From the sequence record PP526765: a stretch of 64,000 bases of DNA. The stretch is one strand, 5' to 3'. Positions within the stretch are counted from its first letter, which is position 1. Each line of letters starts with the position of its first letter. The position numbers were made by a program, and so were the translations under genes. The notes beneath the pieces are model-generated. The model did not search any database. It saw nothing but the letters and a program-made list of their open reading frames with translations, and was not told the origin of the DNA. This DNA comes from Escherichia phage HK3. This document shows positions 6,917-63,578 of this stretch, piece by piece.

Positions 6917-8332
6917 ATGAGCAAGTTATTTAAACATGCGCACCTTCATGCAGGTCGAACTGAAAATGGTGCTGTAAACCATACTTCATCAATGTCTGCT
7001 CTGGTAGACTTCTACAAAGCCGCTGGTTCAAGCCGTAGCAATGTAGAAATCTTACCAGACCTGTTCTACAAAGCTTTGCGTGAGGATGTTGATGTTGCAG
7101 TTCGTATTTTACTGCATATGCGAGATGTACGAGAAGGTATGGGCGAGCGTAAAGCTTTCCGAACTGTTTTGCTTCAAGCGATTGAAGATAAGGTTTTAGA
7201 ACCTACACAGGTTCTTCGCATTATGGATAAGATTGCAGAACTTGGTCGTTTTGATGACTTCAAAATCTTTGTAGGTACTCGTTTTGAGACAGACGCCTTC
7301 AAACATTTAGAAGCAGCATTACTAGACCCTGCAACAGCAGGTTTAGCAGCTAAGTGGTTGCCACGAGTAAAACCACGCCACAAACAGTTTGTAAAACGTT
7401 TCTGCAAGTTTGCAAACTTAAGTGAGAAGGAGTATCGCACACTGTTGTCTGCACTATCTGATACGGTTGAGCAAAAAATCTCTGCTAATGAGTTTGGTAA
7501 GATTGACTACAGCAAGATTCCTTCACTAGCTGCTGCACGTTACCAAAAACTCTTTAACCGTAAAGATGGTGAACGTTACAAAGCTTACATCGAGTCGCTC
7601 TCAAAGGGTGAGGCTAAGATTAATGCTGGTGCTGTTTACCCATACGATGTGATTAAATCTATTAAGTATGGTAATGCAGATGTTGCTAATGAGCAGTGGA
7701 AAGCACTTCCAAACTGGATGGCAGAAGGTGAAAACATCTTGTGTATGACTGATGTTTCAAGCTCAATGTCTTGGGTGAATCTTGGTTCAATCACTGCCCT
7801 TGATATTGGTGTATCACTTGCTTTGTATGTAGCAGAACGCAATACTGGTTGCTTTAAAGATGAGTTAATGGTTTACTCAACAAACCCTCACTTCATTGAA
7901 CTGAGTGGTGATTTACGAAACCGTCATCGTCAGGTGATGCGTCACGTTGAATATGGCTCAACTAACTTACAAGCAGCTTTTGACCGTATTCTTGAAATAG
8001 GTAAGAGAAACAACTTGACTCAGAAAGATATGCCAAGTAAGCTTATTATCTTCTCTGATATGGAGTTTAATCAGGTTGATGGTGCAAATGGTCATACAAA
8101 CTTTGAAGCAATTCAGAGTAAGTACAAAAAAGCCGGATACGAAATGCCACAACTAGTATTCTGGTACTTAGCAAACCGTAATGGTACTTGCGAAGTATCT
8201 GTTAAGGATAATGGTGTAGCAATGGTATCAGGGTTCTCTCCAGCCACTTTAAAAGCTCTACTTGGTGGTGAGAAGTTTGACCCAATCAGCGTAATGCTCA
8301 AAGCAGTAATGATTGACCGTTATATCTGGTAA
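6917..8332 (+). CDS. vWA-domain protein with Ro60-like architecture (alpha-helical N-domain + C-terminal vWA)
   Basis: 471 aa; MIDAS-like DVSSSMS ... GSTN ... IIFSDME in C-terminal half; helical N-terminal about 270 aa; lies immediately upstream of tRNA array. Confidence 0.6.
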   Translation: MSKLFKHAHLHAGRTENGAVNHTSSMSALVDFYKAAGSSRSNVEILPDLFYKALREDVDVAVRILLHMRDVREGMGERKAFRTVLLQAIEDKVLEPTQVLRIMDKIAELGRFDDFKIFVGTRFETDAFKHLEAALLDPATAGLAAKWLPRVKPRHKQFVKRFCKFANLSEKEYRTLLSALSDTVEQKISANEFGKIDYSKIPSLAAARYQKLFNRKDGERYKAYIESLSKGEAKINAGAVYPYDVIKSIKYGNADVANEQWKALPNWMAEGENILCMTDVSSSMSWVNLGSITALDIGVSLALYVAERNTGCFKDELMVYSTNPHFIELSGDLRNRHRQVMRHVEYGSTNLQAAFDRILEIGKRNNLTQKDMPSKLIIFSDMEFNQVDGANGHTNFEAIQSKYKKAGYEMPQLVFWYLANRNGTCEVSVKDNGVAMVSGFSPATLKALLGGEKFDPISVMLKAVMIDRYIW

Positions 8333-8350
8333 AAAGTTTTAAAAAGGGTA

Positions 8351-8379
8351 TTGACAATGTGTTTGATACCCTTTAATAT
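8351..8379 (+). promoter_or_regulatory. sigma70-like promoter (TTGACA-17-TAATAT) for tRNA array
   Basis: consensus -35 and near-consensus -10 with 17-nt spacer; flanked by inverted repeat AAGGGTAT / ATACCCTT. Confidence 0.65.
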
Positions 8380-8442
8380 GTTCTACATAGAAACGAGATG
8401 AGAGCTTTTCTAAGATACTGAAAAATATTTTAAAAAAGTTCT

Positions 8443-8471
8443 TGACAACCACTAAAAAATAATGTTAAAGT
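8443..8471 (+). promoter_or_regulatory. sigma70-like promoter (TTGACA-17-TAAAGT)
   Basis: TTGACA 8443-8448, TAAAGT 8466-8471; overlapping hairpin CCACT...AGTGG. Confidence 0.5.
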
Positions 8472-8497
8472 GGTTACATAGAGTTTGAAAAGTTTAT

Positions 8498-8574
8498 CTC
8501 TGTTTAGCTCAGCTTGGTAGAGCGTTCCGTTTGGGGCGGTAAGGCCGGAGGTTCAAGTCCTCCAACAGAGACCA
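8498..8574 (+). tRNA. tRNA-Pro (anticodon UGG)
   Basis: manual fold: acceptor CTCTGTT/AACAGAG, D-loop AGCTTGGTA, anticodon loop TTTGGGG, T-arm GGAGG-TTCAAGT-CCTCC, encoded CCA. Confidence 0.75.
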
Positions 8575-8581
8575 AATTAAT

Positions 8582-8659
8582 GTTCCAGTAGACAAAATGG
8601 TATAGTCACCACTCTTTCAAAGTGGATATTTGAGGGTTCAAATCCCTTCTGGAACGCCA
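8582..8659 (+). tRNA. tRNA-Glu (anticodon UUC)
   Basis: manual fold: acceptor GTTCCAG/CTGGAAC, anticodon stem CCACT/AGTGG loop CTTTCAA, T-loop TTCAAAT, CCA. Confidence 0.7.
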
Positions 8660-8666
8660 GTTTTGA

Positions 8667-8740
8667 CAGAAGACCAATTACAGCAAACTTAATCTTATTC
8701 ATCTGAAGGTAAATCGGACAAAGAAGAGATTTGGTCTGGT
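8667..8740 (+). ncRNA. inter-tRNA structured element a (conserved terminal helix)
   Basis: 5' CAGAAGACCAATTACAGCAA ... 3' TTGGTCTGG; terminal 7-bp helix AGACCAA/TTGGTCT. Confidence 0.45.
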
Positions 8741-8750
8741 CATTAAGAAT

Positions 8751-8827
8751 TGCGGGTATAGAGAAAGGGCGTCTCACATGTCTCATTAGCATGGTATCGG
8801 CAGGTTCGACTCCTGCACCCGCCTCCA
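8751..8827 (+). tRNA. tRNA-Met (anticodon CAU; 1:72 mismatch)
   Basis: manual fold: anticodon stem CATGT/GCATG loop CTCATTA, T-arm GCAGG-TTCGACT-CCTGC, acceptor TGCGGGT/ACCCGCC with U1xC72 mismatch, CCA. Confidence 0.6.
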
Positions 8828-8833
8828 AATTTA

Positions 8834-8897
8834 CAGAAGACCGTTTACAGCAATATTTATTAAATTTTTAGCGGAAAAATTGAAAGATACGGTCTGG
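8834..8897 (+). ncRNA. inter-tRNA structured element b
   Basis: 5' CAGAAGACCGTTTACAGCAA ... 3' ACGGTCTGG; helix AGACCGT/ACGGTCT (compensatory to element a); internal hairpin AATTTTT-AGCGG-AAAAATT. Confidence 0.45.
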
Positions 8898-8910
8898 TAA
8901 TACTAAACAT

Positions 8911-8987
8911 GGTTAGGAAGCACATAAGGTATGTGCGGTCGCCTGTTAAGCGAATGGCACAGGGTTCGAATCCCTGACTAACCGCCA
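8911..8987 (+). tRNA. tRNA-Asn (anticodon GUU)
   Basis: manual fold: acceptor GGTTAGG/ACTAACC, anticodon loop CTGTTAA, T-arm CAGGG-TTCGAAT-CCCTG, CCA. Confidence 0.7.
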
Positions 8988-9058
8988 AATTTAGGAGAGA
9001 AGCGATTGCTCACCGATTTGTAAGGTGCAAGTCCTTAGCCTGAATAGAATAATAAAAT

Positions 9059-9145
9059 GTGTCGTTATCCCGTAGATGGTAGCGGTGGGGACTGTAAATC
9101 CCTTGTCATTGAGACTCGGTAGGTTCGACTCCTACACGGCACACC
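9059..9145 (+). tRNA. tRNA-Tyr (anticodon GUA), long variable arm
   Basis: manual fold: acceptor GTGTCGT/ACGGCAC, anticodon stem GGGGA/TCCCT loop CTGTAAA, 15-nt variable arm, T-arm GTAGG-TTCGACT-CCTAC, CCA. Confidence 0.7.
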
Positions 9146-9207
9146 AATTTTGAGAGGGCTATTTAGCCCCTCCCTTAAAGAGTTCTTACGAGTACCCTTT
9201 AAAGGAG

Positions 9208-9281
9208 CAGAAGACCAAATACAGCAAGTTACTTAAAATTTCAAGCCAATTCAATTTTGAAAAATTTAAAACTTGGTCTGG
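9208..9281 (+). ncRNA. inter-tRNA structured element c
   Basis: 5' CAGAAGACCAAATACAGCAA ... 3' TTGGTCTGG; same terminal helix. Confidence 0.45.
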
Positions 9282-9294
9282 CTCAACAAATTTA

Positions 9295-9425
9295 CAGAAG
9301 ACCGTTTACAGCAAAACTTAAACAATCTATTTCTCGGTAAAGAAAAGGTGAAGGTTCGATTCCTTCACTCGGCAGATGTCGAGTTGGTGTAATGGTAGCA
9401 CTTAAGATGATAAACAACGGTCTGG
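9295..9425 (+). ncRNA. candidate Y-RNA-like (YrlA-like) RNA: terminal helix enclosing circularly permuted tRNA-like domain
   Basis: 5' CAGAAGACCGTTTACAGCAA ... 3' ACGGTCTGG helix; inside: T-arm GTGAAGG-TTCGATT-CCTTCAC (9348-9368), closed acceptor-like hairpin ACTCGGC-AGAT-GTCGAGT (9367-9384), D-arm GTGT-AATGGTA-GCAC (9387-9401); no anticodon arm. Confidence 0.5.
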
Positions 9426-9576
9426 TAATTATCTTTGCAGTAGCTTATGTGGCTAATTATATCGTCCCATGAGTGCCGATGAATTTCCTTAGCATGATTC
9501 TAGATTAGCTTAATAGGAAATGACTCTACAGACCCTTTAGCAAGGTCTGCGTAGGTTACTGCAAAGATAATTTAAT

Positions 9577-9652
9577 AGAAGTGTAGCAGAATGGTGATGC
9601 GGCAGACTTTTAATCTGATAGGTGATGGGTTCGAATCCCTCCACTTCTACCA
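9577..9652 (+). tRNA. tRNA-Lys (anticodon UUU)
   Basis: manual fold: acceptor AGAAGTG/CACTTCT, anticodon stem GCAGA/TCTGA loop CTTTTAA, CCA; T-stem weak (3 bp); homologous to Lys-CUU gene with compensatory changes. Confidence 0.6.
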
Positions 9653-9656
9653 ATAT

Positions 9657-9733
9657 GGTTCAGTCGCAGATAAGGTAATGCAGGGGTCTCATAAGCCCTA
9701 TGAATGTGGGTTCGATTCCCATCTGAGCCTCCA
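9657..9733 (+). tRNA. tRNA with anticodon CAU (Met or Ile-lysidine type)
   Basis: manual fold: acceptor GGTTCAG/CTGAGCC, anticodon stem GGGGT/GCCCT loop CTCATAA, T-arm GTGGG-TTCGATT-CCCAT, CCA. Confidence 0.65.
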
Positions 9734-9735
9734 AT

Positions 9736-9811
9736 GCTGTGAAAGCACATATGGATGTGCATTCGGCTGATAACCGAAAGGAAGAAGGTTCGAATCCTTC
9801 TCACAGTACCA
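9736..9811 (+). tRNA. tRNA-Ile (anticodon GAU)
   Basis: manual fold: acceptor GCTGTGA/TCACAGT, D-arm GCAC-ATATGGAT-GTGC, anticodon stem TTCGG/CCGAA loop CTGATAA, T-arm GAAGG-TTCGAAT-CCTTC, CCA. Confidence 0.8.
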
Positions 9812-9826
9812 ATTTCAATAAAGTTG

Positions 9827-9855
9827 TTGACATTGAGATGTGACCACTTTATAGT
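9827..9855 (+). promoter_or_regulatory. sigma70-like promoter (TTGACA-17-TATAGT) internal to tRNA region
   Basis: TTGACA 9827-9832, TATAGT 9850-9855. Confidence 0.6.
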
Positions 9856-10058
9856 AACCTTAGTTTTCGTTGCGTAGCGTCTATTTTGCAAATTTAAAAT
9901 AAATGCAAACGACAATGTTTTTCTGGCAGTAGCTTGATAGGCTAAACACCAGTGAGGTCTTCCAATCCCTCATCAAAGAATTTGGCGTACTAGCCCACGG
10001 TATGATTAATAAGGTGGGCATCTTTAAGGGTTTTTTAAGAGAGTCTTTAAAGATTAAT

Positions 10059-10135
10059 GCACCCTTAGTTCAACTGGACAGAACAAATGACTTCTAATCA
10101 TTAGGTTACAGGTTCGAATCCTGTAGGGTGTGCCA
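10059..10135 (+). tRNA. tRNA-Arg (anticodon UCU)
   Basis: manual fold: acceptor GCACCCT/AGGGTGT, D-arm GTTC-AACTGGACA-GAAC, anticodon stem AATGA/TCATT loop CTTCTAA, T-arm ACAGG-TTCGAAT-CCTGT, CCA. Confidence 0.8.
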
Positions 10136-10277
10136 AATAGTTAGCAGATTGCTTAGACGACCTTATCGGGTCTCCGTGTAGGGAGGTGGTCTGTATCTCA
10201 TGTTTTCCAGAACATGTAAATAATCTGAGAAGGGGCTTTACAGTGTTGAGATAATACGGTAAGCTTCGAATTATAGT

Positions 10278-10360
10278 ATGGGACGATGTTAAGACTCTAA
10301 GGCATGAGCAACGGCTTCCAACACCGTTTCAAAGGGATTCAACTCCTCCGTCCCATGCCA
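10278..10360 (+). tRNA. atypical tRNA-like gene (possible tRNA-Trp, anticodon CCA) with extra nucleotides between acceptor and D-arm
   Basis: perfect 7-bp acceptor ATGGGAC/GTCCCAT + G + CCA; anticodon-like loop TTCCAAC; D-region 8 nt longer than canonical; weak T-stem. Confidence 0.3.
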
Positions 10361-10373
10361 AAGTCTTATTAGG

Positions 10374-10461
10374 GGTAGGTAGCGGCTAATGGTAGCCAAA
10401 CTGTCTTGAAAACAGTTGCCACTGTAGAGATACGGTGAGGGTTCGACTCCTTTACTTACCG
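10374..10461 (+). tRNA. tRNA-Ser (anticodon UGA), long variable arm
   Basis: manual fold: acceptor GGTAGGT/ACTTACC, anticodon stem ACTGT/ACAGT loop CTTGAAA, about 20-nt variable arm, T-arm GAGGG-TTCGACT-CCTTT. Confidence 0.7.
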
Positions 10462-10617
10462 CCTAATAAGATTTAAAGCCAAGCTTCATTCGGATGTTGC
10501 TTTGGTATCCCTCGTGTATTGTCGTACACACTGATAAAGCACCTAGTAGGTGTCACGGAGAAGAGATAATATCAAGCTCTCCAAAGGTTCTAGTCACCGG
10601 ATTAAACAAGACTATGC

Positions 10618-10639
10618 AAAGACCTGTTTAGGTCTTTTT
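10618..10639 (+). terminator. terminator-like hairpin within tRNA region
   Basis: AAAGACC-TGTTTA-GGTCTTT followed by TTT. Confidence 0.3.
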
Positions 10640-10718
10640 AGAGGGCTTCTAAGGTTATTACAGCTTGTTGTGGAACCTTGTTGCTTAGGTTCTTAGAAGT
10701 TCTCTAAAAAGATTTAAT

Positions 10719-10795
10719 GCACCTATAGCCCAACTGGTAGAGGCAGCAGACTTAGAATCTGCTCAGTGTGAGTTCGAATCTCTCTAGGTGTACCA
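10719..10795 (+). tRNA. tRNA with anticodon UAG (Leu by code) but short variable arm
   Basis: manual fold: acceptor GCACCTA/TAGGTGT, anticodon stem GCAGA/TCTGC loop CTTAGAA, 5-nt variable loop, T-loop TTCGAAT, A73, CCA. Confidence 0.55.
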
Positions 10796-10802
10796 AATTA
10801 AT

Positions 10803-10878
10803 GCAGGTGTAGCAAAATGGTTATGCGGCTGACTCTTAATCAGTAAGACGATGGTTTCAATTCCCTCCACCTGTACCA
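10803..10878 (+). tRNA. tRNA-Lys (anticodon CUU)
   Basis: manual fold: acceptor GCAGGTG/CACCTGT, anticodon stem GCTGA/TCAGT loop CTCTTAA, CCA; paralog of Lys-UUU with compensatory stem changes. Confidence 0.6.
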
Positions 10879-10884
10879 GACATT

Positions 10885-10960
10885 GGGGATGTAGTTTACA
10901 TGGTTAAAACATAAGTTTTGCAAACTTAAGTACAGGGTTCAATTCCCTGCTTCTCCACCA
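10885..10960 (+). tRNA. tRNA-Ala (anticodon UGC)
   Basis: manual fold: acceptor GGGGATG/CTTCTCC with G3-U70 wobble (Ala identity), D-arm GTTT-ACATGGTTA-AAAC, anticodon stem TAAGT/ACTTA loop TTTGCAA, T-arm CAGGG-TTCAATT-CCCTG, CCA. Confidence 0.7.
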
Positions 10961-10966
10961 ATTAGT

Positions 10967-11041
10967 GCATCCATAGTTTAAACGGGAAAATTACAGTCTT
11001 CCAAACTGAGGTTGAGGGTTCGATTCCCTCTGGATGCTCCA
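10967..11041 (+). tRNA. tRNA-Gly (anticodon UCC)
   Basis: manual fold: acceptor GCATCCA/TGGATGC, anticodon loop CTTCCAA, T-arm GAGGG-TTCGATT-CCCTC, CCA. Confidence 0.7.
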
Positions 11042-11047
11042 AATAAT

Positions 11048-11124
11048 GCTGCTTTCGTATAATTGGCTATTACACATCCCTTGTAAGGATGGAAATGCAG
11101 GTTCGAGTCCTGTGAGCAGCACCA
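11048..11124 (+). tRNA. tRNA-Thr (anticodon UGU)
   Basis: manual fold: acceptor GCTGCTT/GAGCAGC, anticodon stem CATCC/GGATG loop CTTGTAA, T-arm GCAGG-TTCGAGT-CCTGT, CCA. Confidence 0.75.
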
Positions 11125-11219
11125 ATTCAGAGGTCAAGTGAAAGACCGCTGGTGTCAACTGAAGACCGTAACAAATTCCACGGAGTTGAGTTAGCGGCAC
11201 AACTTCAGACCTCTTTCAT

Positions 11220-11294
11220 ACTCGCTTAGTTTATATGGTAAAACACCACCCTTACAAGATGAAGAAAAAGGTTCAAGTCCTTTAGTGAGTACCA
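11220..11294 (+). tRNA. tRNA-like gene, possible tRNA-Val (anticodon UAC); weak anticodon stem
   Basis: acceptor ACTCGCT/AGTGAGT, D-arm GTTT-ATATGGTA-AAAC, T-arm AAAGG-TTCAAGT-CCTTT, CCA; anticodon stem only 3/5 paired. Confidence 0.4.
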
Positions 11295-11295
11295 T

Positions 11296-11373
11296 GTTCC
11301 AATATCCCAATTGGCAGAGGATGCAAGCTCAAACCTTGTACTAGTGACGGTTCGAATCCGTCTTGGAACACCA
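11296..11373 (+). tRNA. tRNA with anticodon CAA (Leu by code) but short variable arm
   Basis: manual fold: acceptor GTTCCAA/TTGGAAC, Leu-like D-loop AATTGGCAGAG, anticodon stem GCAAG/CTTGT loop CTCAAAC, 6-nt variable loop, T-arm GACGG-TTCGAAT-CCGTC, A73, CCA. Confidence 0.55.
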
Positions 11374-11487
11374 ATTTTGGGAGAGCACTATGAGTGATAA
11401 GTCAATAGCAAAAAAGTTTAGAGCGTCATACCTAAACAGACGTAAAAACAAAGATTGTGAAAAACTGTATGGTGTTCTTGTAGGTAA

Positions 11488-11563
11488 GCAGGATTAGTTC
11501 AAATGGATAGAGCAGCAGTCTACGAAGCTGTTAATAGGGGTTCGAATCCCTTATCCTGCGCCA
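11488..11563 (+). tRNA. tRNA-Arg (anticodon ACG)
   Basis: manual fold: acceptor GCAGGAT/ATCCTGC, D-arm GTTC-AAATGGATA-GAGC, anticodon stem GCAGT/GCTGT loop CTACGAA, T-arm AGGGG-TTCGAAT-CCCTT, CCA. Confidence 0.75.
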
Positions 11564-11582
11564 ATTTTAAGAGGCTATTTAG

Positions 11583-12140
11583 ATGAGATATTTGAAGTAT
11601 GCTTCATGGATTTTCCTAGCTTTGTTAGACCCATTGGCAGCAACCTTAGCAGTTATCTTAGCACCTTTTGTAGTTCCATTCTACAGTGAGAAGAAAGGGC
11701 ACTTACCTTTCGGCTTCAGATGGATGGAGACATATGACAACCCAATTGATGGTGATAAAGGTCATGTTGAACGATGGGCTAAGATTAGAAAGATTGGTAA
11801 GCTTGGTGTCTATATGCAGAGAGTCGGTTGGCTCTGGAGAAACAAAGCTTATAACTTCTCTTACCATGTGTTAGGAAGAGATGTAAAAGATGTTACTAAG
11901 TGGAAAGGTAATATCAACGTAAGCTCTGACCCTGAAGATAATCAGACAGGTTATCTCCTAATGTGGAACAGTAATGCTTGGGGATTATTCGCTTTTATCC
12001 CATCAATTAAAGTCTTTGGTAAACAATTCTACTGGAGAATTTATATTGGGTGGAAACTAAAAAGTGTTGTCCCAGAAGAAAGAGCATTCTCAAGGGAAAG
12101 AGTTATGTTGGCATTCTTTATTCATCCACTGAGAAAGTAA
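11583..12140 (+). CDS. hypothetical membrane-anchored protein embedded in tRNA array
   Basis: 185 aa, ATG with AAGAGG upstream; N-terminal hydrophobic segment ASWIFLALLDPLAATLAVILAPFVVPF. Confidence 0.5.
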   Translation: MRYLKYASWIFLALLDPLAATLAVILAPFVVPFYSEKKGHLPFGFRWMETYDNPIDGDKGHVERWAKIRKIGKLGVYMQRVGWLWRNKAYNFSYHVLGRDVKDVTKWKGNINVSSDPEDNQTGYLLMWNSNAWGLFAFIPSIKVFGKQFYWRIYIGWKLKSVVPEERAFSRERVMLAFFIHPLRK

Positions 12141-12148
12141 AGATTTAA

Positions 12149-12224
12149 AGGGGATTAGTTTACAAGGTTAAAACCTCGGTCTTTGAAATCGAAGAAGTTG
12201 GTTCAATTCCAACATCCCCCGCCA
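12149..12224 (+). tRNA. tRNA-Gln (anticodon UUG)
   Basis: manual fold: acceptor AGGGGAT/ATCCCCC (A1xC72), D-arm GTTT-ACAAGGTTA-AAAC, anticodon stem TCGGT/ATCGA loop CTTTGAA, T-arm GTTGG-TTCAATT-CCAAC, CCA. Confidence 0.65.
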
Positions 12225-12226
12225 AT

Positions 12227-12305
12227 GCTCCATTACTCCAATTGGCAGAGAGGCCAGACTTAAAATCTGTGTTATGTATCGGTTCGAATCCGATATGGAG
12301 TACCA
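12227..12305 (+). tRNA. tRNA with anticodon UAA (Leu by code) but short variable arm
   Basis: manual fold: acceptor GCTCCAT/ATGGAGT, Leu-like D-loop AATTGGCAGAG, anticodon loop CTTAAAA, 7-nt variable loop, T-arm ATCGG-TTCGAAT-CCGAT, A73, CCA. Confidence 0.55.
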
Positions 12306-12310
12306 AATTT

Positions 12311-12386
12311 AGCGGTATAGCATAACTGGCAATGCAACAGTCTCTGAAGCTGTCTTATTAAGGTTCAAATCCTTATGCCGCTGCCA
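12311..12386 (+). tRNA. tRNA-Gln (anticodon CUG)
   Basis: manual fold: acceptor AGCGGTA/TGCCGCT, D-arm GCAT-AACTGGCA-ATGC, anticodon stem ACAGT/GCTGT loop CTCTGAA, T-arm TAAGG-TTCAAAT-CCTTA, CCA. Confidence 0.7.
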
Positions 12387-12417
12387 CTTCTAAGGATTCT
12401 TACGAGAGTCCTTAAAT

Positions 12418-12493
12418 GTGGCCTTATCATAAACGGTAATGACCCATGCTGTGAACATGGTCTATACGGGTTCAAATCCCGTAGGTCACCCCA
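12418..12493 (+). tRNA. tRNA-His (anticodon GUG)
   Basis: manual fold: acceptor GTGGCCT/AGGTCAC, D-arm TCAT-AAACGGTA-ATGA, anticodon stem CCATG/CATGG loop CTGTGAA, T-arm ACGGG-TTCAAAT-CCCGT, C73, CCA. Confidence 0.75.
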
Positions 12494-12498
12494 ATTTA

Positions 12499-12575
12499 TA
12501 GTCCAAGTAGCTTATATGGTTAAAGCGCGTGTCTGAAAAACATGAGAAGAGGGTTCAAATCCCACTGGATTACCA
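12499..12575 (+). tRNA. tRNA-Phe (anticodon GAA); acceptor/D junction atypical
   Basis: D-arm GCTT-ATATGGTTA-AAGC, anticodon stem CGTGT/ACATG loop CTGAAAA, T-loop TTCAAAT; acceptor TAGTCCA/TGGATTA leaves 4 nt before D-stem. Confidence 0.5.
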
Positions 12576-12591
12576 ATTTCAAAGGTGCTTA

Positions 12592-13326
12592 ATGAAAGAG
12601 ATGACAGAACAAGGTAAGGAGATTTTTAATCTCTTAAAAACTGGTAAAGGGTTTTCTAACCCCCTTATTACTGGTGCAGCAGTTCTCGGTGGAACCGTAG
12701 CTGCCTCTACATCACTTGTAAGCTCTATTAGCTCTGTAACAGACCCTACAATAAAGGATAAACTTATTGCTGCTGGACTTACAACAGTTCTGCTTAACAG
12801 CTTTACAACGAGTCTGACAAGCACTACAGCAACTACTAAGACCCTAACAGACTATGGTCAAAAATCTATTGATGAGTTTTCATCACGTATGCAGGTAGCA
12901 AAGGGATACTCCAATGTTATGGGTGCAGTAGGAGAACAAGTTGGTTGTACACCATTTAGTGGTATTATGGGTGTTGCTACAGAGTATGGTCAAAAAGCTA
13001 TGGATACAATTAACAGCACACTAGATGGCGTTAATGATGTATTAAGCGACTTACAGGATGCTATTGATAAAGGTCTTAATACTATTTCTGATTTAGCTAA
13101 CCAAGCTGTTAGTAAGATTAATGAAGGTATCTCAAAGATTACAGCTTATGCAGATGAAGTTGTGCAGATGATTGAAGAAGAAGCTGCCCTTATTGCAGAG
13201 TACCTTAAAACGAATATCAATGGGTTCTTAGCAGGTATCTTACCAGACTGGTTTGATGATGCTTGTAAAACTGGTGTGATTGACACTATTGCAACACCAG
13301 AAATGAAGAACGCATTACAGAAATAA
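12592..13326 (+). CDS. hypothetical Ser/Thr-rich protein
   Basis: ATG at 12592 with AAAGGTG upstream (track ORF from 12529 would overlap tRNA-Phe); 244 aa. Confidence 0.5.
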   Translation: MKEMTEQGKEIFNLLKTGKGFSNPLITGAAVLGGTVAASTSLVSSISSVTDPTIKDKLIAAGLTTVLLNSFTTSLTSTTATTKTLTDYGQKSIDEFSSRMQVAKGYSNVMGAVGEQVGCTPFSGIMGVATEYGQKAMDTINSTLDGVNDVLSDLQDAIDKGLNTISDLANQAVSKINEGISKITAYADEVVQMIEEEAALIAEYLKTNINGFLAGILPDWFDDACKTGVIDTIATPEMKNALQK

Positions 13327-13327
13327 C

Positions 13328-13420
13328 GGAAGATTAACCCTAAAAGGTAAGGGAGCAGTTTGCTAAACTGCCAGTAGCTGAGAAATCGGTGTACCAGTTC
13401 AAGTCTGGTATCTTCCTCCA
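13328..13420 (+). tRNA. tRNA-Ser (anticodon GCU), long variable arm
   Basis: manual fold: acceptor GGAAGAT/ATCTTCC, anticodon stem GCAGT/ACTGC loop TTGCTAA, long variable arm, T-arm ACCAG-TTCAAGT-CTGGT, CCA. Confidence 0.7.
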
Positions 13421-13424
13421 ATTT

Positions 13425-13500
13425 GAATCCGTGACAGAAATGGCTATGTACCTGTCTGCAAAACAGGTTTATAAGGGTTCGAGTCCCTTCGGATTCTCCA
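13425..13500 (+). tRNA. tRNA-Cys (anticodon GCA)
   Basis: manual fold: acceptor GAATCCG/CGGATTC, anticodon stem CCTGT/ACAGG loop CTGCAAA, T-arm AAGGG-TTCGAGT-CCCTT, U73 (Cys identity), CCA. Confidence 0.75.
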
Positions 13501-13537
13501 AGTTATTTTACTCTCTCTCAATTAAAATAATAATAAT

Positions 13538-13597
13538 GCCCTGCTATAAGTATTCTTCCTTTCGCTACCGAAGAGTATTTTTAGACAGGGCTTTTTT
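13538..13597 (+). terminator. rho-independent terminator after tRNA array
   Basis: long imperfect hairpin GCCCTG...CAGGGC followed by TTTTTT (13592-13597). Confidence 0.6.
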
Positions 13598-13662
13598 ACA
13601 GAGTTATACTTTATAAGAAGACTTATACAGTATGTCTCTGACGTACATTGTGGTTTCTCCTT

Positions 13663-13686
13663 GACGGTCTCTGTACCGTCTTTTTT
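13663..13686 (+). terminator. rho-independent terminator
   Basis: GACGGT-CTCTGT-ACCGTC followed by TTTTTT. Confidence 0.6.
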
Positions 13687-13722
13687 AAGGAGAAACATGG
13701 TTAATTATTTGGAGAAAACATA

Positions 13723-13923
13723 ATGAGCGAGACCGTTTATAAAGAACTTTATGAAGCCAATAAAAAGCTGGAATTTATGCAGACTACTATTATGGCAATT
13801 GCAGACAGATTGTCTGTAGCAACAGGTATTGATATCAAAGAAGCCTCTATGGATGCACTTCTTGATGCTGTTGATGCAAAGTTCGAAGTTAAGAAAGAAG
13901 AGACTGCTACAGACTCTGAATAA
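13723..13923 (+). CDS. hypothetical small protein preceding large terminase
   Basis: 66 aa, ATG with GGAG RBS; position compatible with small terminase but too short to assert. Confidence 0.4.
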   Translation: MSETVYKELYEANKKLEFMQTTIMAIADRLSVATGIDIKEASMDALLDAVDAKFEVKKEETATDSE

Positions 13924-13944
13924 TTCTATTTGCGGAGGTGCTTA

Positions 13945-15546
13945 ATGGACTTAAATGCTGTTAAGCAGAAGCGAGTGGAAGATGTTAGGAAAGTCCTAGC
14001 TGGAGAGTTGGGGCTTTCTGATGAAGTAAAAGAAATTATCAAATCATTCGGTAAAGACCCCTCTAAATTCCTTCCAACTCAAATTCTGACTTTATTAAGA
14101 TACACACCAGACCAAGTTAGACTTATCTTCAAATTGATGACTGATAAGAACTATGTAGCCCCTCAGCCGGGTTCTCAAGAGGTGTTTTTAAATACTAATG
14201 CTGACTTGGTTTTATATGGTGGTGCTGCTGGTGCTGGTAAAACTGCTGCATTGTTAATGGACTCTTTAAGGTTTATTGAAGACCCTAACTATAATGCTGT
14301 ATATTTCCGTCGAAATACAACACAGTTACAAGGTGGTTTATGGCCTGCTGCAAAGAAACTATTTGGTAAGTTTGGTGGGGTTCCTCACGAGCAGAAGATG
14401 ACTATCACATTCCCTTCTGGGGCAACTATCAAGTTCACCTACCTAGAACTTGAAAAGCACGCTGAAGGTCATCAGGGTATTGAATACTCAGCTATTTACT
14501 TTGACGAAGGTACACACTTCTCTGCTTCACAGATTTCATACCTACAGACTCGTCTGCGTTCTGGTGCTGAAGGTGACTCATACATGAAGATTTCCATGAA
14601 CCCAGATAGAGACCACTTCATTTATGATTGGGTAGAACCCTTCTTAGATGAAGAAGGTTACCCAGACCCTGAGAAGTGCGGTCGTATTCGTTGGTATGTT
14701 ATGAATGATGGTGTGATGGTTTCTGATTGGGAAAGAGACAAGATTCTTGAAATGTTCCCTCTTGAGATTCCTCAGACATACACCTTCATCTCTGGTACGA
14801 TTGATGATAACCCAATTCTTGACTTCTTAGAACCTAAATATCGTGGTAAGTTGGAAAACAACACACCTGTAAACGTTGCAAGACTTCGTTTCGGTAACTG
14901 GAAGGCTCGTGCAGAAGGTTCAAACTATTGGCAAAGACAATGGTGTGAGATTGTTGATTCACTCCCAGAAGATGTGTTTGATGTCAGAGCATGGGACTTA
15001 GCAGCGACTTTACCATCTGAAATTAACCCTAACCCAGACTGGACAGCGGGTGTTAAGATGGGTAAATCTAAAAAAGACGGTTGCTATTATATCATTGATG
15101 TAGTAAGATTTAGAGATAGACCCTCTGGAGTCGAAACACAAATTAATTTGACTGCTGAAAGTGACGGTAAGCGAACTGGTATTTTTATCCCTCAAGACCC
15201 AGGCGCTGCTGGTAAATCCTATGCAACATCCCTCATCAGGAAACTTGCCGAGAAAGGTTATCGCGCAAGAGCTAAACCAACAAATAAAGATAAAGTTACC
15301 CGCTTTGCGGGATTTTCTGCTGCTTCGGAAGCTGGACTTGTAAAAGTCTTGAGAGGCAGTTGGAACGAAGCTTACTTTCAAGAACTTGAAGGCTTTTGTG
15401 GTGATGGTAAAACGAAAGATGACCAAGTGGATGCTACCAGTGATGCTTTCAACAGTCTTAACGAAGTTAAATTATTCAAGCCACCATCAATGGGTGCTCA
15501 CACAGATTTAGTGAGAGGAAACCCATATGAGGGGCTTAGACGTTGA
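13945..15546 (+). CDS. terL: terminase large subunit
   Basis: Walker A LYGGAAGAGKT, Walker B-like IYFDEGTHF; C-terminal nuclease-sized domain; ATG 13945 with GGAGG 6 nt upstream (track start 13930 is TTG). Confidence 0.85.
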   Translation: MDLNAVKQKRVEDVRKVLAGELGLSDEVKEIIKSFGKDPSKFLPTQILTLLRYTPDQVRLIFKLMTDKNYVAPQPGSQEVFLNTNADLVLYGGAAGAGKTAALLMDSLRFIEDPNYNAVYFRRNTTQLQGGLWPAAKKLFGKFGGVPHEQKMTITFPSGATIKFTYLELEKHAEGHQGIEYSAIYFDEGTHFSASQISYLQTRLRSGAEGDSYMKISMNPDRDHFIYDWVEPFLDEEGYPDPEKCGRIRWYVMNDGVMVSDWERDKILEMFPLEIPQTYTFISGTIDDNPILDFLEPKYRGKLENNTPVNVARLRFGNWKARAEGSNYWQRQWCEIVDSLPEDVFDVRAWDLAATLPSEINPNPDWTAGVKMGKSKKDGCYYIIDVVRFRDRPSGVETQINLTAESDGKRTGIFIPQDPGAAGKSYATSLIRKLAEKGYRARAKPTNKDKVTRFAGFSAASEAGLVKVLRGSWNEAYFQELEGFCGDGKTKDDQVDATSDAFNSLNEVKLFKPPSMGAHTDLVRGNPYEGLRR

Positions 15547-37655: not shown

Positions 37656-38555
37656 TTATTTACCTACTGACAAAGGTGCTTCAATCTTTCCTGCATGTTG
37701 GTAATTGCTAATACCACCAATAAAGTCACTTGCAGTCAGATGTTTCAGGTCACTTAAAGTATTAAGCTGTAAACCAATCTCAAAAGTCGGTGCATGAAAC
37801 TCTTCATTGTTCATCAGTTCATAGACCTGCTTCATATGATTCTGATAAATCTGAGTATCTCCAAAGACACCTATCAAGTACCGTGGAGTGTACCCAGTCA
37901 TCTTGCAAAGAACTTCCAGAATAAAACCATAAGATGCAATATTAAACGGAAGTCCTAAAAAGGTGTCTACAGAACGCTGATACCATTGTAAGTCAACTTC
38001 ACCTTCGTTAGTGATATAAATCTGAAACAGAACATGACAAGGTGCTAAAGCCATCGAGTTGGATGCAATATCTGCTGCATTCCAAGCATTAACAAGCATG
38101 TAGCGGTCTGTAATATCACCCTTCATCTTCGTCACTAAGGTCTCTAACTGGTCTACAACACAACCGTTATGGCCTTCAAAGTTTCTCCACTGAACTCCGT
38201 AGATTCTTCCACCTGCATCCTCTAACCAATCCTGTTCAGAAGAATAATTAGAGCTTAACCAACGTTTAAAATCATCTGACCAGATAGTCCAGCGTTCCCC
38301 ATCATTTTCACCCCAAGTACGGTAACGGAGTTCACCCAGCTTATTCTCACCATTCAGGAACCATAAAGCTTCCCCGATAACTTGCCGTGTAAACACCTGT
38401 TTAGATGTTAAGAGTGGGAAACCAGTTCGCATATCAAAACGAAACTGAGGTGGAGCAAATGCAGAGATAACATCTCCAGTTCGTGTAGTACGCAATTCAC
38501 CAACGGATAAAACATGGTTCAGGATATTTTTGTAGCTTGAATCTGCTTGTGACAT
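37656..38555 (-). CDS. thyA: thymidylate synthase
   Basis: LAPCHVLFQIY...QRSVDTFLGLPFNIASY nearly identical in pattern to ThyA active-site region; GRIYGVQWR, AWN motifs. Confidence 0.85.
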   Translation of the reverse strand: MSQADSSYKNILNHVLSVGELRTTRTGDVISAFAPPQFRFDMRTGFPLLTSKQVFTRQVIGEALWFLNGENKLGELRYRTWGENDGERWTIWSDDFKRWLSSNYSSEQDWLEDAGGRIYGVQWRNFEGHNGCVVDQLETLVTKMKGDITDRYMLVNAWNAADIASNSMALAPCHVLFQIYITNEGEVDLQWYQRSVDTFLGLPFNIASYGFILEVLCKMTGYTPRYLIGVFGDTQIYQNHMKQVYELMNNEEFHAPTFEIGLQLNTLSDLKHLTASDFIGGISNYQHAGKIEAPLSVGK

Positions 38556-63532: not shown

Positions 63533-63578
63533 ACTTGACAAGGTGATGTGGGTCTTGATAGGCTTACATCACCTTTTT
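63533..63578 (+). terminator. terminator hairpin after nrdD overlapping conserved 13-mer
   Basis: ACTTGACAAGGTG at 63533-63545; hairpin GGTGATGT (63542-63549) / ACATCACC (63566-63573) followed by TTTTT. Confidence 0.55.

Follow-up and report, generated by a model that had tools for sequence, protein, structure and literature searches.

What is encoded by a stretch of about 200 nucleotides (nt) that lies behind a strong promoter, within a phage tRNA array, and holds no tRNA gene? We addressed this question for Escherichia phage HK3 (sequence record PP526765) using a stretch of 64,000 nt, referred to here as the window; all coordinates are positions in this stretch, and the element in question is on the + strand. 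The original prediction proposed that positions 9856-10058 specify another small RNA (sRNA) or a long leader. This view holds in that the element is discrete, promoter-driven, structured, under strong selection and also the leader of a tRNA-Arg transcript, but it overlooked a short open reading frame (ORF) resembling the tag of transfer-messenger RNA (tmRNA), two pseudoknots and an antisense arm. Our results suggest that the element is a tmRNA derivative without a tRNA-like domain, joined to an arm directed against tmRNA, which would swap the tag on the host tmRNA; from the comparisons described below, we put the chance of this reading at slightly less than even.

The element is widespread among phages. 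A sensitive BLASTN search with positions 9812-10058 matched 660 of 50,697 phage records, 253 of which were full-length and Felix-like. Beyond this Felix-like set, hundreds of unrelated phages matched the core alone (approximately 9896-10020 in the BLASTN matches; the conserved core as a whole spans about 9861-10019) with 70-82% identity. These included the Erwinia phage SunLIRen (Kolesnikvirus), Det7 and many other 157-kb phages (Kuttervirus), TR2 (Schitoviridae), KLPPOU148 (Jedunavirus), the 46-48 kb phages swi2 and C1, the 108-kb phage Cyrano and the temperate, P22-like phage HK620. The core-matching loci in these other phages carry no annotation; their flanking genes vary by family, and tRNA genes are often close. 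A search of IMG/VR recovered at least 120 contigs by the pattern of the ORF and, independently, at least 120 by the pattern of the second pseudoknot. In the genomes of 185,579 bacterial species, the ORF pattern detected five real copies, all on enterobacterial contigs of 20-109 kb and probably phage-derived, together with two chance matches. The core is kept across unrelated phage families with compensatory changes, as the conservation analysis proposed in the original prediction has now revealed. Identity of 70-82% across unrelated families despite unrelated flanks, together with covariation, indicates that the element is not a spacer and counters the suggestion that this region is merely a precursor segment that is removed. 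An Infernal scan against Rfam 15, proposed at the same time, placed the element in no family: at gathering and at permissive thresholds, only tRNAs and sub-threshold tmRNA matches were obtained for the window, related loci and HK620 (RF00023, 10.7-14.3 bits; RF04321, 14.9-30.6 bits; gathering threshold, 47 bits).

The distribution within P22-like phages is patchy. P22 itself lacks the element although it keeps the junction sequence: at P22 positions 37946-37975 (L213), compared with L133 and L031, the sequence found 3' of the element in relatives is retained, CACGACATTTCTGAAAGC, and this is the start of the abundant sRNA 'P22E' reported in PMC13397905. As P22 has the junction without the module, the late leader of P22-like phages is polymorphic for the presence or absence of the element, which behaves as an accessory module. 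Two bacterial genomes each hold two prophage contigs with the element (L019 and L186 in IMG 2869131919; L041 and L172 in 2663762948), the L019 copy being of the Cyrano-like type.

The conserved core resembles tmRNA's mRNA-like domain. A GCA resume codon at 9905 is preceded by an A/U-rich linker (9890-9904) that ends in AUAAAU (9899-9904), the equivalent of A84-U85-A86...C89 of tmRNA, and is the first codon of a short ORF with a hydrophobic, Ala-containing tail (9905-9940; GCA AAC GAC AAU GUU UUU CUG GCA GUA GCU UGA UAG). The A84-U85-A86 context of tmRNA sets the reading frame. Among the 82 distinct sequences that we aligned, the bases before GCA read A-U-A-A-N-U, with A at -4, A at -3 and U at -1 in every sequence, U at -5 in 76 and A at -6 in 79; AAAUGCAAACGA is invariant in the family alignment. 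The Rfam tmRNA and permuted-tmRNA models, while scoring far below threshold, align exactly at this resume stretch. The encoded tag is ANDNVFLAVA followed by two stop codons, and the tag of Escherichia coli tmRNA is ANDENYALAA, also with two stops; elements in other phage families encode ANDDVVLMAA, ANEEVYLAVA, ANEEMYLAVA, ANDEQFLAVA, ANDDLMLMAA and similar peptides. All 122 elements fetched by the pseudoknot pattern alone have a 10-codon ORF in the GCA frame. Substitution in the 82 distinct sequences is codon-periodic: codons 1-3 vary at third positions only (codon 3 has entropies of 0, 0 and 1.22 at its three positions), codon 10, for Ala, has entropies of 0, 0 and 1.55 with all four Ala codons in use, and the stop is retained (UAA in 78, UGA in 3 and UAG in 1). 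Judging from these patterns of substitution, the phage tag ORF looks translated.

Downstream of the resume signal, the RNA is predicted to fold as the corresponding part of tmRNA does, with a helix 5 that encloses the stop codons and with 3' pseudoknots, here two and not three. The helix-5-like hairpin (9923-9952) consists of an outer helix, CUGG/CCAG (9923-9926 with 9949-9952), and an inner helix, UAGCU/GGCUA (9930-9934 with 9940-9944), with the stop codons in the loop; the outer helix is paired in 99.7% of cases and changes from G-C to A-U in 26 sequences. Pseudoknot A (9953-9985) is formed by S1, UGAGG 9953-9957 with CCUCA 9968-9972, and by S2, in which the loop bases CCAA (9962-9965) pair with UUGG (9982-9985). 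S1 is paired in 99.5% and S2 in 97%, and all four S2 pairs change on both sides (CCAA/UUGG, CCGA/UCGG, CCAG/CUGG). Pseudoknot B (9986-10019) comprises S1, CGUACU 9986-9991 with GGUAUG 9999-10004, and S2, GCCCAC 9993-9998 with GUGGGC 10014-10019. Its S1 is paired in 99.2%, with two-sided changes at five of six pairs, and its S2 covaries between types (GGCCC/GGGC, GGCGGGAG/CUCCCGCC, GCG/CGC). Both pseudoknots are of the H-type. The three helices listed in the original prediction are therefore all present, as the two helices of the hairpin and S1 of pseudoknot A. For the counts of covariation, we built a covariance model, aligned 85 elements and scored 25 pairs in seven helices over the 82 distinct sequences; 94.4% of cells pair as compared to 35-42% with slid partners, 17 of the 25 pairs are changed on both sides and none of 500 shuffles reaches any of these measures, in an alignment that was fitted to the nested helices and so leans towards them, with the two pseudoknot helices left unfitted. 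The HK3 sequence taken alone folds modestly better than its shuffles (z = -2.4; 4 of 200 as good). A degenerate or intron-containing tRNA, with TAGC..GCTA as a D-arm-like helix and CUUCCAA as an "anticodon" loop, was considered for this region and was dropped given the tag ORF and the pseudoknots.

A sequence of this hairpin, TTGATAGGCT, had been noted as shared with a site at 63553. This 10-mer does occur at both 9934-9943 and 63555-63564, and within the element it comprises the two in-frame stop codons of the tag (UGA UAG) and the hairpin loop. The link between the sites is a matter of chance: some 190 10-mers compared with 128,000 positions (64 kb, both strands) should yield about 20 such matches, and the covariance model detects a single copy of the element in the window.

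The element has no tRNA-like domain, which in tmRNA comprises a 7-bp acceptor stem with G3.U70, a T-arm and a 3' (N)CCA end. Default ARAGORN detected no genuine tmRNA in the window, the fetched loci, 129 extracted elements or HK620; its sole tmRNA call, in L001 among the first eight loci fetched, makes use of a tRNA-Met and yields a tag that is spurious and not the same. There is no T-arm in 9856-10058, the promoter of the window adjoins the conserved core, and there is no tRNA-like sequence in the pR'-tR' leader of HK620. No tRNA-like partner was found nearby in HK620, KLPPOU148 or C1, and the various contexts share no neighbouring element. No intramolecular partner was found for the 5' region, and the PK1 pseudoknot and helix 2 have no equivalent. 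As the tRNA-like domain is the defining feature of tmRNA, the element is not itself a tmRNA; an ORF that is translated from an RNA without this domain would need a partner.

A candidate for this partner is indicated by the 5' end. The region 9861-9889 (+ strand) holds three blocks complementary to the host tmRNA, the product of ssrA: UAGUUUUCGUUG (9861-9872) forms 12 base pairs (bp) with E. coli ssrA nt 95-106, which include tag codons 2-6; GCG (9877-9879) pairs with nt 89-91 in the region of the resume codon; and CUAUUUUGC (9881-9889) pairs with nt 77-87, the 3' strand of PK1 and the linker. The predicted duplex totals -27 kcal/mol, a value reached by none of 500 shuffles against ssrA 54-110. 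Across 68 distinct arms, the target, ssrA nt ~54-108, takes in the resume codon and tag codons 1-6 together with the 3' strand of PK1. The heptamer GUUUUCG is present in all 68 and exactly complements the CGAAAAC of the host codons GAC GAA AAC. Energies range from -23 to -49 kcal/mol, with z-scores below -2 for all 68 and below -3 for 63; all 68 arms cover the resume codon, and all but one cover ssrA 97-104. The arm type seen most often, that of HK620, swi2 and others, differs in sequence; its predicted duplex with ssrA 54-108 consists of four collinear blocks and reaches -41 to -49 kcal/mol. Arms of differing sequence pair in different registers on one target, and the longest Watson-Crick run (10 nt) falls at the same ssrA site in nine of nine arm types. 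For six arm types, between 0 and 4 of 500 shuffles were as good against ssrA 54-110, whereas the figure for the 5' region of tmRNA itself was 170 of 500; these shuffles preserved base composition only, and the target region was chosen after the first match.

Several other observations bear on this pairing. Predicted paired columns of the arm are more conserved than unpaired ones (0.34 versus 0.74 bits). Pairing of the arm with the ORF of its own phage is weak (-14 to -18 kcal/mol), and codons 4-6 are exactly where this ORF departs from that of the host. When the full-length RNAs are cofolded, the arm-tmRNA duplex persists and the net gain is -3 to -15 kcal/mol; a whole-length duplex prediction of element versus tmRNA was no better than shuffles. 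In two isolate genomes, the prophage arm and the cognate ssrA give -43.0 and -46.5 kcal/mol. The target stretch is nearly invariant, being unchanged in 117 of the 119 enterobacterial ssrA genes captured beside prophages; variants include CUGACC and CGAACC in the arm and GGUUGG and GGUUUG in the host PK1. The complementarity is thus conserved and beyond chance, the property by which antisense sRNAs are recognised. Two other pairings were rejected. Pairing of GUUUUCG with the stretch that separates the pseudoknot strands, or with the resume codon of the element itself, exhibited no covariation and weak energies, and a predicted second contact, of pseudoknot A with the host PK1, was discounted as covariation shows that those bases pair inside the phage RNA.

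The locus is organised in a way that would yield a discrete RNA. HK3 is Felixounavirus-like, and positions 9500-10500 are 98% identical to Salmonella phage vB_SenM-pSJ21; JohannRWettstein (Bas63), a Felixounavirus of the BASEL collection, has 98.8% identity over the element. ARAGORN detects 25 tRNA genes on the + strand at 8498-13500, and both ARAGORN and Rfam confirm that no tRNA lies between tRNA-Ile (end, 9811) and tRNA-Arg (start, 10059). The sigma-70 promoter reported for this gap is indeed present (9827-9855, + strand; TTGACA 9827-9832, a 17-nt spacer and TATAGT 9850-9855) and, with 11 of 12 consensus positions, is the top match in 8000-14000. Promoter-like sites as a class are not enriched in that interval (16 observed versus 14.6 expected), so the weight of this promoter derives from its position and conservation and not from its scan score. 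Of 134 distinct upstream contexts from other phages, 40 have a sigma-70-like promoter that ends 6-12 nt 5' of the conserved GUUUUCG, and this spacing to the first conserved bases recurs in the window, Cyrano, swi2, KLPPOU148 and SunLIRen types; in HK620, the element is within the pR'-tR' leader. Transcription is predicted to start near A9862/G9863. No terminator-like site was found in 9856-10058 ahead of tRNA-Arg(UCU) (10059-10135, + strand), so the element is also the 5' leader of the downstream tRNA transcript. Cleavage by RNase P at 10058/10059 would set the 3' end and free an RNA of about 197 nt (9862-10058). Near this end lies a 16-bp hairpin without a U-tail (10020-10054), so rich in G.U pairs that it can form in RNA of the + strand alone; its part is probably in stabilisation or processing. 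It is common only to other Ounavirinae, and a similar sequence occurs in SunLIRen and in Felix-like contigs.

A different arrangement is found in other contexts. The sequence CAGUGCUCUUUCC, carried by 48 of the 134 upstream contexts, pairs with GGUAAGAGCAUUG, which lies just 3' of the second pseudoknot; together they make a closing helix of 13 bp whose third pair is a conserved G.U. The window, Cyrano, swi2 and SunLIRen types lack this helix. Modules bracketed by CAGUGCUCUUUCC and GGUAAGAGCAUUG form one-strand cassette arrays (L015, L050, L010, L211 and about 48 of the 134 contexts), in which the two sequences could pair around either a module or a spacer. In HK620 (L211, 2711-2815) and in many 40-48 kb contigs, including L015, L050, L010 and L001, the element is followed on its 3' side by another conserved RNA module that carries no annotation; it has the form GUGCUCUUUCC-G(U/G)UGUGGUGAAUGCGCAGGCUGAUGCG ... 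GCCGGAGAUCAGCNCCGGCCACCACA, with a long terminal stem and no Rfam match. Since the same pair of sequences brackets this unrelated module, we read the pair as a processing or cassette boundary and not as an acceptor stem; it may also be a protein site. The possibility that the 13-bp helix is a minimal alanine acceptor was set aside for the same reason, and because no CCA follows it and it is missing from the window and the promoter-driven types.

How might such an RNA act? Two independent observations lead to a tag swap as the simplest model: an ORF that looks decoded although its RNA has no tRNA-like domain, and an arm by which this RNA would be held to the very host molecule that owns such a domain. 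The RNA would be made from the promoter at 9827-9855 and freed by RNase P cleavage before tRNA-Arg. Its arm would anneal to host tmRNA at nt ~54/76-108, opening PK1 and covering tag codons 1-6 of the host as well as its resume codon, and the intermolecular duplex would substitute for PK1. The phage AUAAAU|GCA would then be separated by 9-14 nt from one end of the duplex, the end beside helix 2 and the alanyl-tRNA-like domain of the host molecule; the native distance from PK1 to the resume codon is 10 nt. A stalled ribosome rescued by host Ala-tmRNA and SmpB would then resume on the phage ORF, add (A)ANDNVFLAVA in place of (A)ANDENYALAA and terminate at UGA UAG. Ribosome recycling would continue while YALAA, the C-terminal protease determinant, would be replaced. 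The conservation, the structure, the coding signature of the ORF, the missing tRNA-like domain and the complementarity to host tmRNA are shown by the analysis; that the two RNAs anneal in vivo, that ribosomes read the phage ORF and what becomes of the tagged proteins we infer.

A number of points weigh against this model. Its support is entirely computational, and we know of no precedent for a template that is supplied in trans and tethered only at its 5' side; loading of such a template into the mRNA channel may be poor. ClpXP might still accept as substrates those tags that end in LMAA or LAAA, which renders the benefit of a swap doubtful. The target region having been chosen after the first match, the other arm types serve as replications of that match but are related by descent. 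The duplexes of the Cyrano and L021 arms are better than shuffles only when compared with the target region, not with the whole tmRNA, the HK3 arm can fold back on its own resume region, and one host ssrA variant (ACC, ANDETY) would place a mismatch in the core of the duplex. Given these points, we regard it as possible, at a little under even chances, that a mobile module of virulent and temperate enterobacterial phages hijacks trans-translation in trans by pairing with host tmRNA, silencing its template and supplying a phage tag (…LAVA or …LMAA for …ALAA).

Pure inhibition of tmRNA is the main rival to the tag swap. The arm would then act as an antisense inhibitor or sponge, by blocking the host resume codon or by triggering RNase III, and the ORF and pseudoknots would be an untranslated scaffold or a relic. 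The complementarity of the arm applies equally to this explanation, as does the missing tRNA-like domain, and long imperfect duplexes are typical RNase III substrates. The coding signature, however, is left unexplained: a scaffold needs neither ten fixed codons, third-position variation and four alternative Ala codons nor a retained stop and a UA at -5/-4. We consider inhibition alone to be unlikely. A further explanation is that the element is a decoy, titrating a factor that recognises tmRNA (S1, RNase R, the SmpB tail or a defence sensor) without pairing to tmRNA. The likeness to tmRNA in resume context, helix 5 and pseudoknots is what a decoy would require, but the conserved anti-tmRNA arm would have no role, the difference between phage and host tags at exactly the arm-bound codons 4-6 would be unexplained, and the mimicry is limited in that the covariance model has no match to E. 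coli ssrA; this explanation is improbable.

Also conceivable, but very improbable, is that the phage has a genuine two-piece (permuted-type) tmRNA, of which the element would be the coding piece and the acceptor would be encoded elsewhere, for example in an odd tRNA-like stretch or a neighbouring tRNA. The permuted-tmRNA model does give the best sub-threshold matches here (14.9-30.6 bits), the closing helix with its G.U third pair is present in many 40-48 kb phages, and ARAGORN with thresholds lowered to 80% reports 'tmRNAp* 9560-10028', reading ANDNVFLAVA and both stops. Every score is nevertheless below the gathering threshold of 47 bits, and the ARAGORN call is one of ten, the other nine being spurious, and borrows an ordinary tRNA upstream of the promoter. 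Moreover, HK620 and KLPPOU148 have no tRNA-like gene nearby, and the closing helix is neither found in the promoter-started types nor restricted to this module. The gap at 10136-10373 was tried as the acceptor piece and dropped because it is confined to Ounavirinae. Least probable of all, with hardly any chance in our estimation, is that the region is a conventional tRNA-operon leader or spacer, or a short peptide gene initiated at AUG 9903 (MQTTMFFWQ). The lack of a terminator ahead of tRNA-Arg would suit a leader, and this AUG overlaps the resume codon in most types; all ORFs listed for the region are short. Conservation across families with unrelated flanks, with covariation, is unlike that of a spacer, and the AUG frame is not conserved: the codon is GUG or CUG in Cyrano-type elements, the +2-frame peptide varies in length and sequence, and there is no Shine-Dalgarno sequence.

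Other parts of the array, and one database record, deserve mention in their own right. The gap at 10136-10373 is conserved within Ounavirinae (258 records), has a tRNA-like end (GGGACG ... CGTCCCA) and contains a hairpin, AACGG-CUUCCAACA-CCGUU, with a loop resembling that of pseudoknot A; several relatives have HNH homing-endonuclease ORFs at this spot. Relaxed ARAGORN reports an intron-containing tRNA-Arg(tct)-like gene and a tRNA-Leu(tag)-like gene in the gaps at 9271-9374 and 11613-11694, which may be degenerate or unusual tRNAs, and a perfect T-arm-like sequence, GAAGGTTCGATTCCTTC, lies at ~9348-9368. The record GU169904.1, "Staphylococcus phage SA1" (147 kb), includes DNA 93.6% identical to the Felixounavirus tRNA region and is probably mixed or mis-assembled.

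Bacteria rescue ribosomes and maintain quality control mainly through trans-translation, which is also a drug target and on which some phages are known to depend. A phage RNA that replaces or blocks the tmRNA template would be a new layer of host takeover. If the tag-swap model is correct, the element would be the first natural template RNA supplied to tmRNA in trans and the first known phage RNA targeting SsrA; it would prove by a natural example that the tmRNA template can come in trans and would offer a ready tool to retarget the tags of rescued proteins. The element is common: ~1.3% of the phage genomes in the database carry it, among them therapeutic and typing phages of the Felix O1-like kind, Kuttervirus, HK620 and phages of the BASEL collection. 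Annotation pipelines have missed it because it is invisible to Rfam and to default ARAGORN, and it accounts for part of the unexplained gaps in phage tRNA arrays.

Comparison with known systems serves to define what is unusual about the element. With one-piece tmRNA (RF00023) it shares the GCA resume codon, the A/U-rich upstream stretch with U(-5)A(-4), a 10-codon tag that starts with AND and has a small hydrophobic end, one or more stops in the helix 5 loop and downstream H-type pseudoknots. Unlike one-piece tmRNA, it has no acceptor stem, T-arm, CCA end or helix 2, a single-stranded anti-tmRNA arm replaces PK1, only two pseudoknots lie downstream and the length is ~195 nt as opposed to 363. 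Two-piece tmRNAs of alpha-proteobacteria, cyanobacteria and some beta-proteobacteria (RF04321 and related) likewise have a coding RNA that is separate from the acceptor 3' end and pairs with another RNA. In those systems, however, a single gene gives rise to both pieces, which are held together by the acceptor stem and helix 2, whereas the phage element encodes no acceptor piece and its predicted partner is the complete host tmRNA, contacted through the coding region. Complete tmRNA genes are known in some phages, for example in cluster C mycobacteriophages such as Bxz1 and LordLeafolot and in a marine methylophage; these too are phage-borne RNAs related to trans-translation, often beside tRNA genes, but they possess a tRNA-like domain detectable by ARAGORN, while the element has none and carries an anti-host arm in addition.

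Like trans-acting sRNAs and sponges, the element has a conserved 5'-terminal seed (GUUUUCG) against a conserved host RNA, with a promoter-proximal 5' end in many phages. It differs from them in that its target is a stable non-coding RNA and not an mRNA, in that the window has no Rho-independent terminator or obvious Hfq module, and in that it pairs over 30-50 nt and carries an ORF with a coding signature. Species 1 and 2 of phage T4 (rnaC and rnaD) are small stable RNAs that are co-transcribed and co-processed with phage tRNAs; to our knowledge, no tmRNA-like tags are known in them. A search of the full-text literature found no report of a tmRNA mimic without a tRNA-like domain or of a phage RNA directed at SsrA. 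In summary, the parts of the element are familiar from these systems, but their combination and the mode of action that it implies are not.

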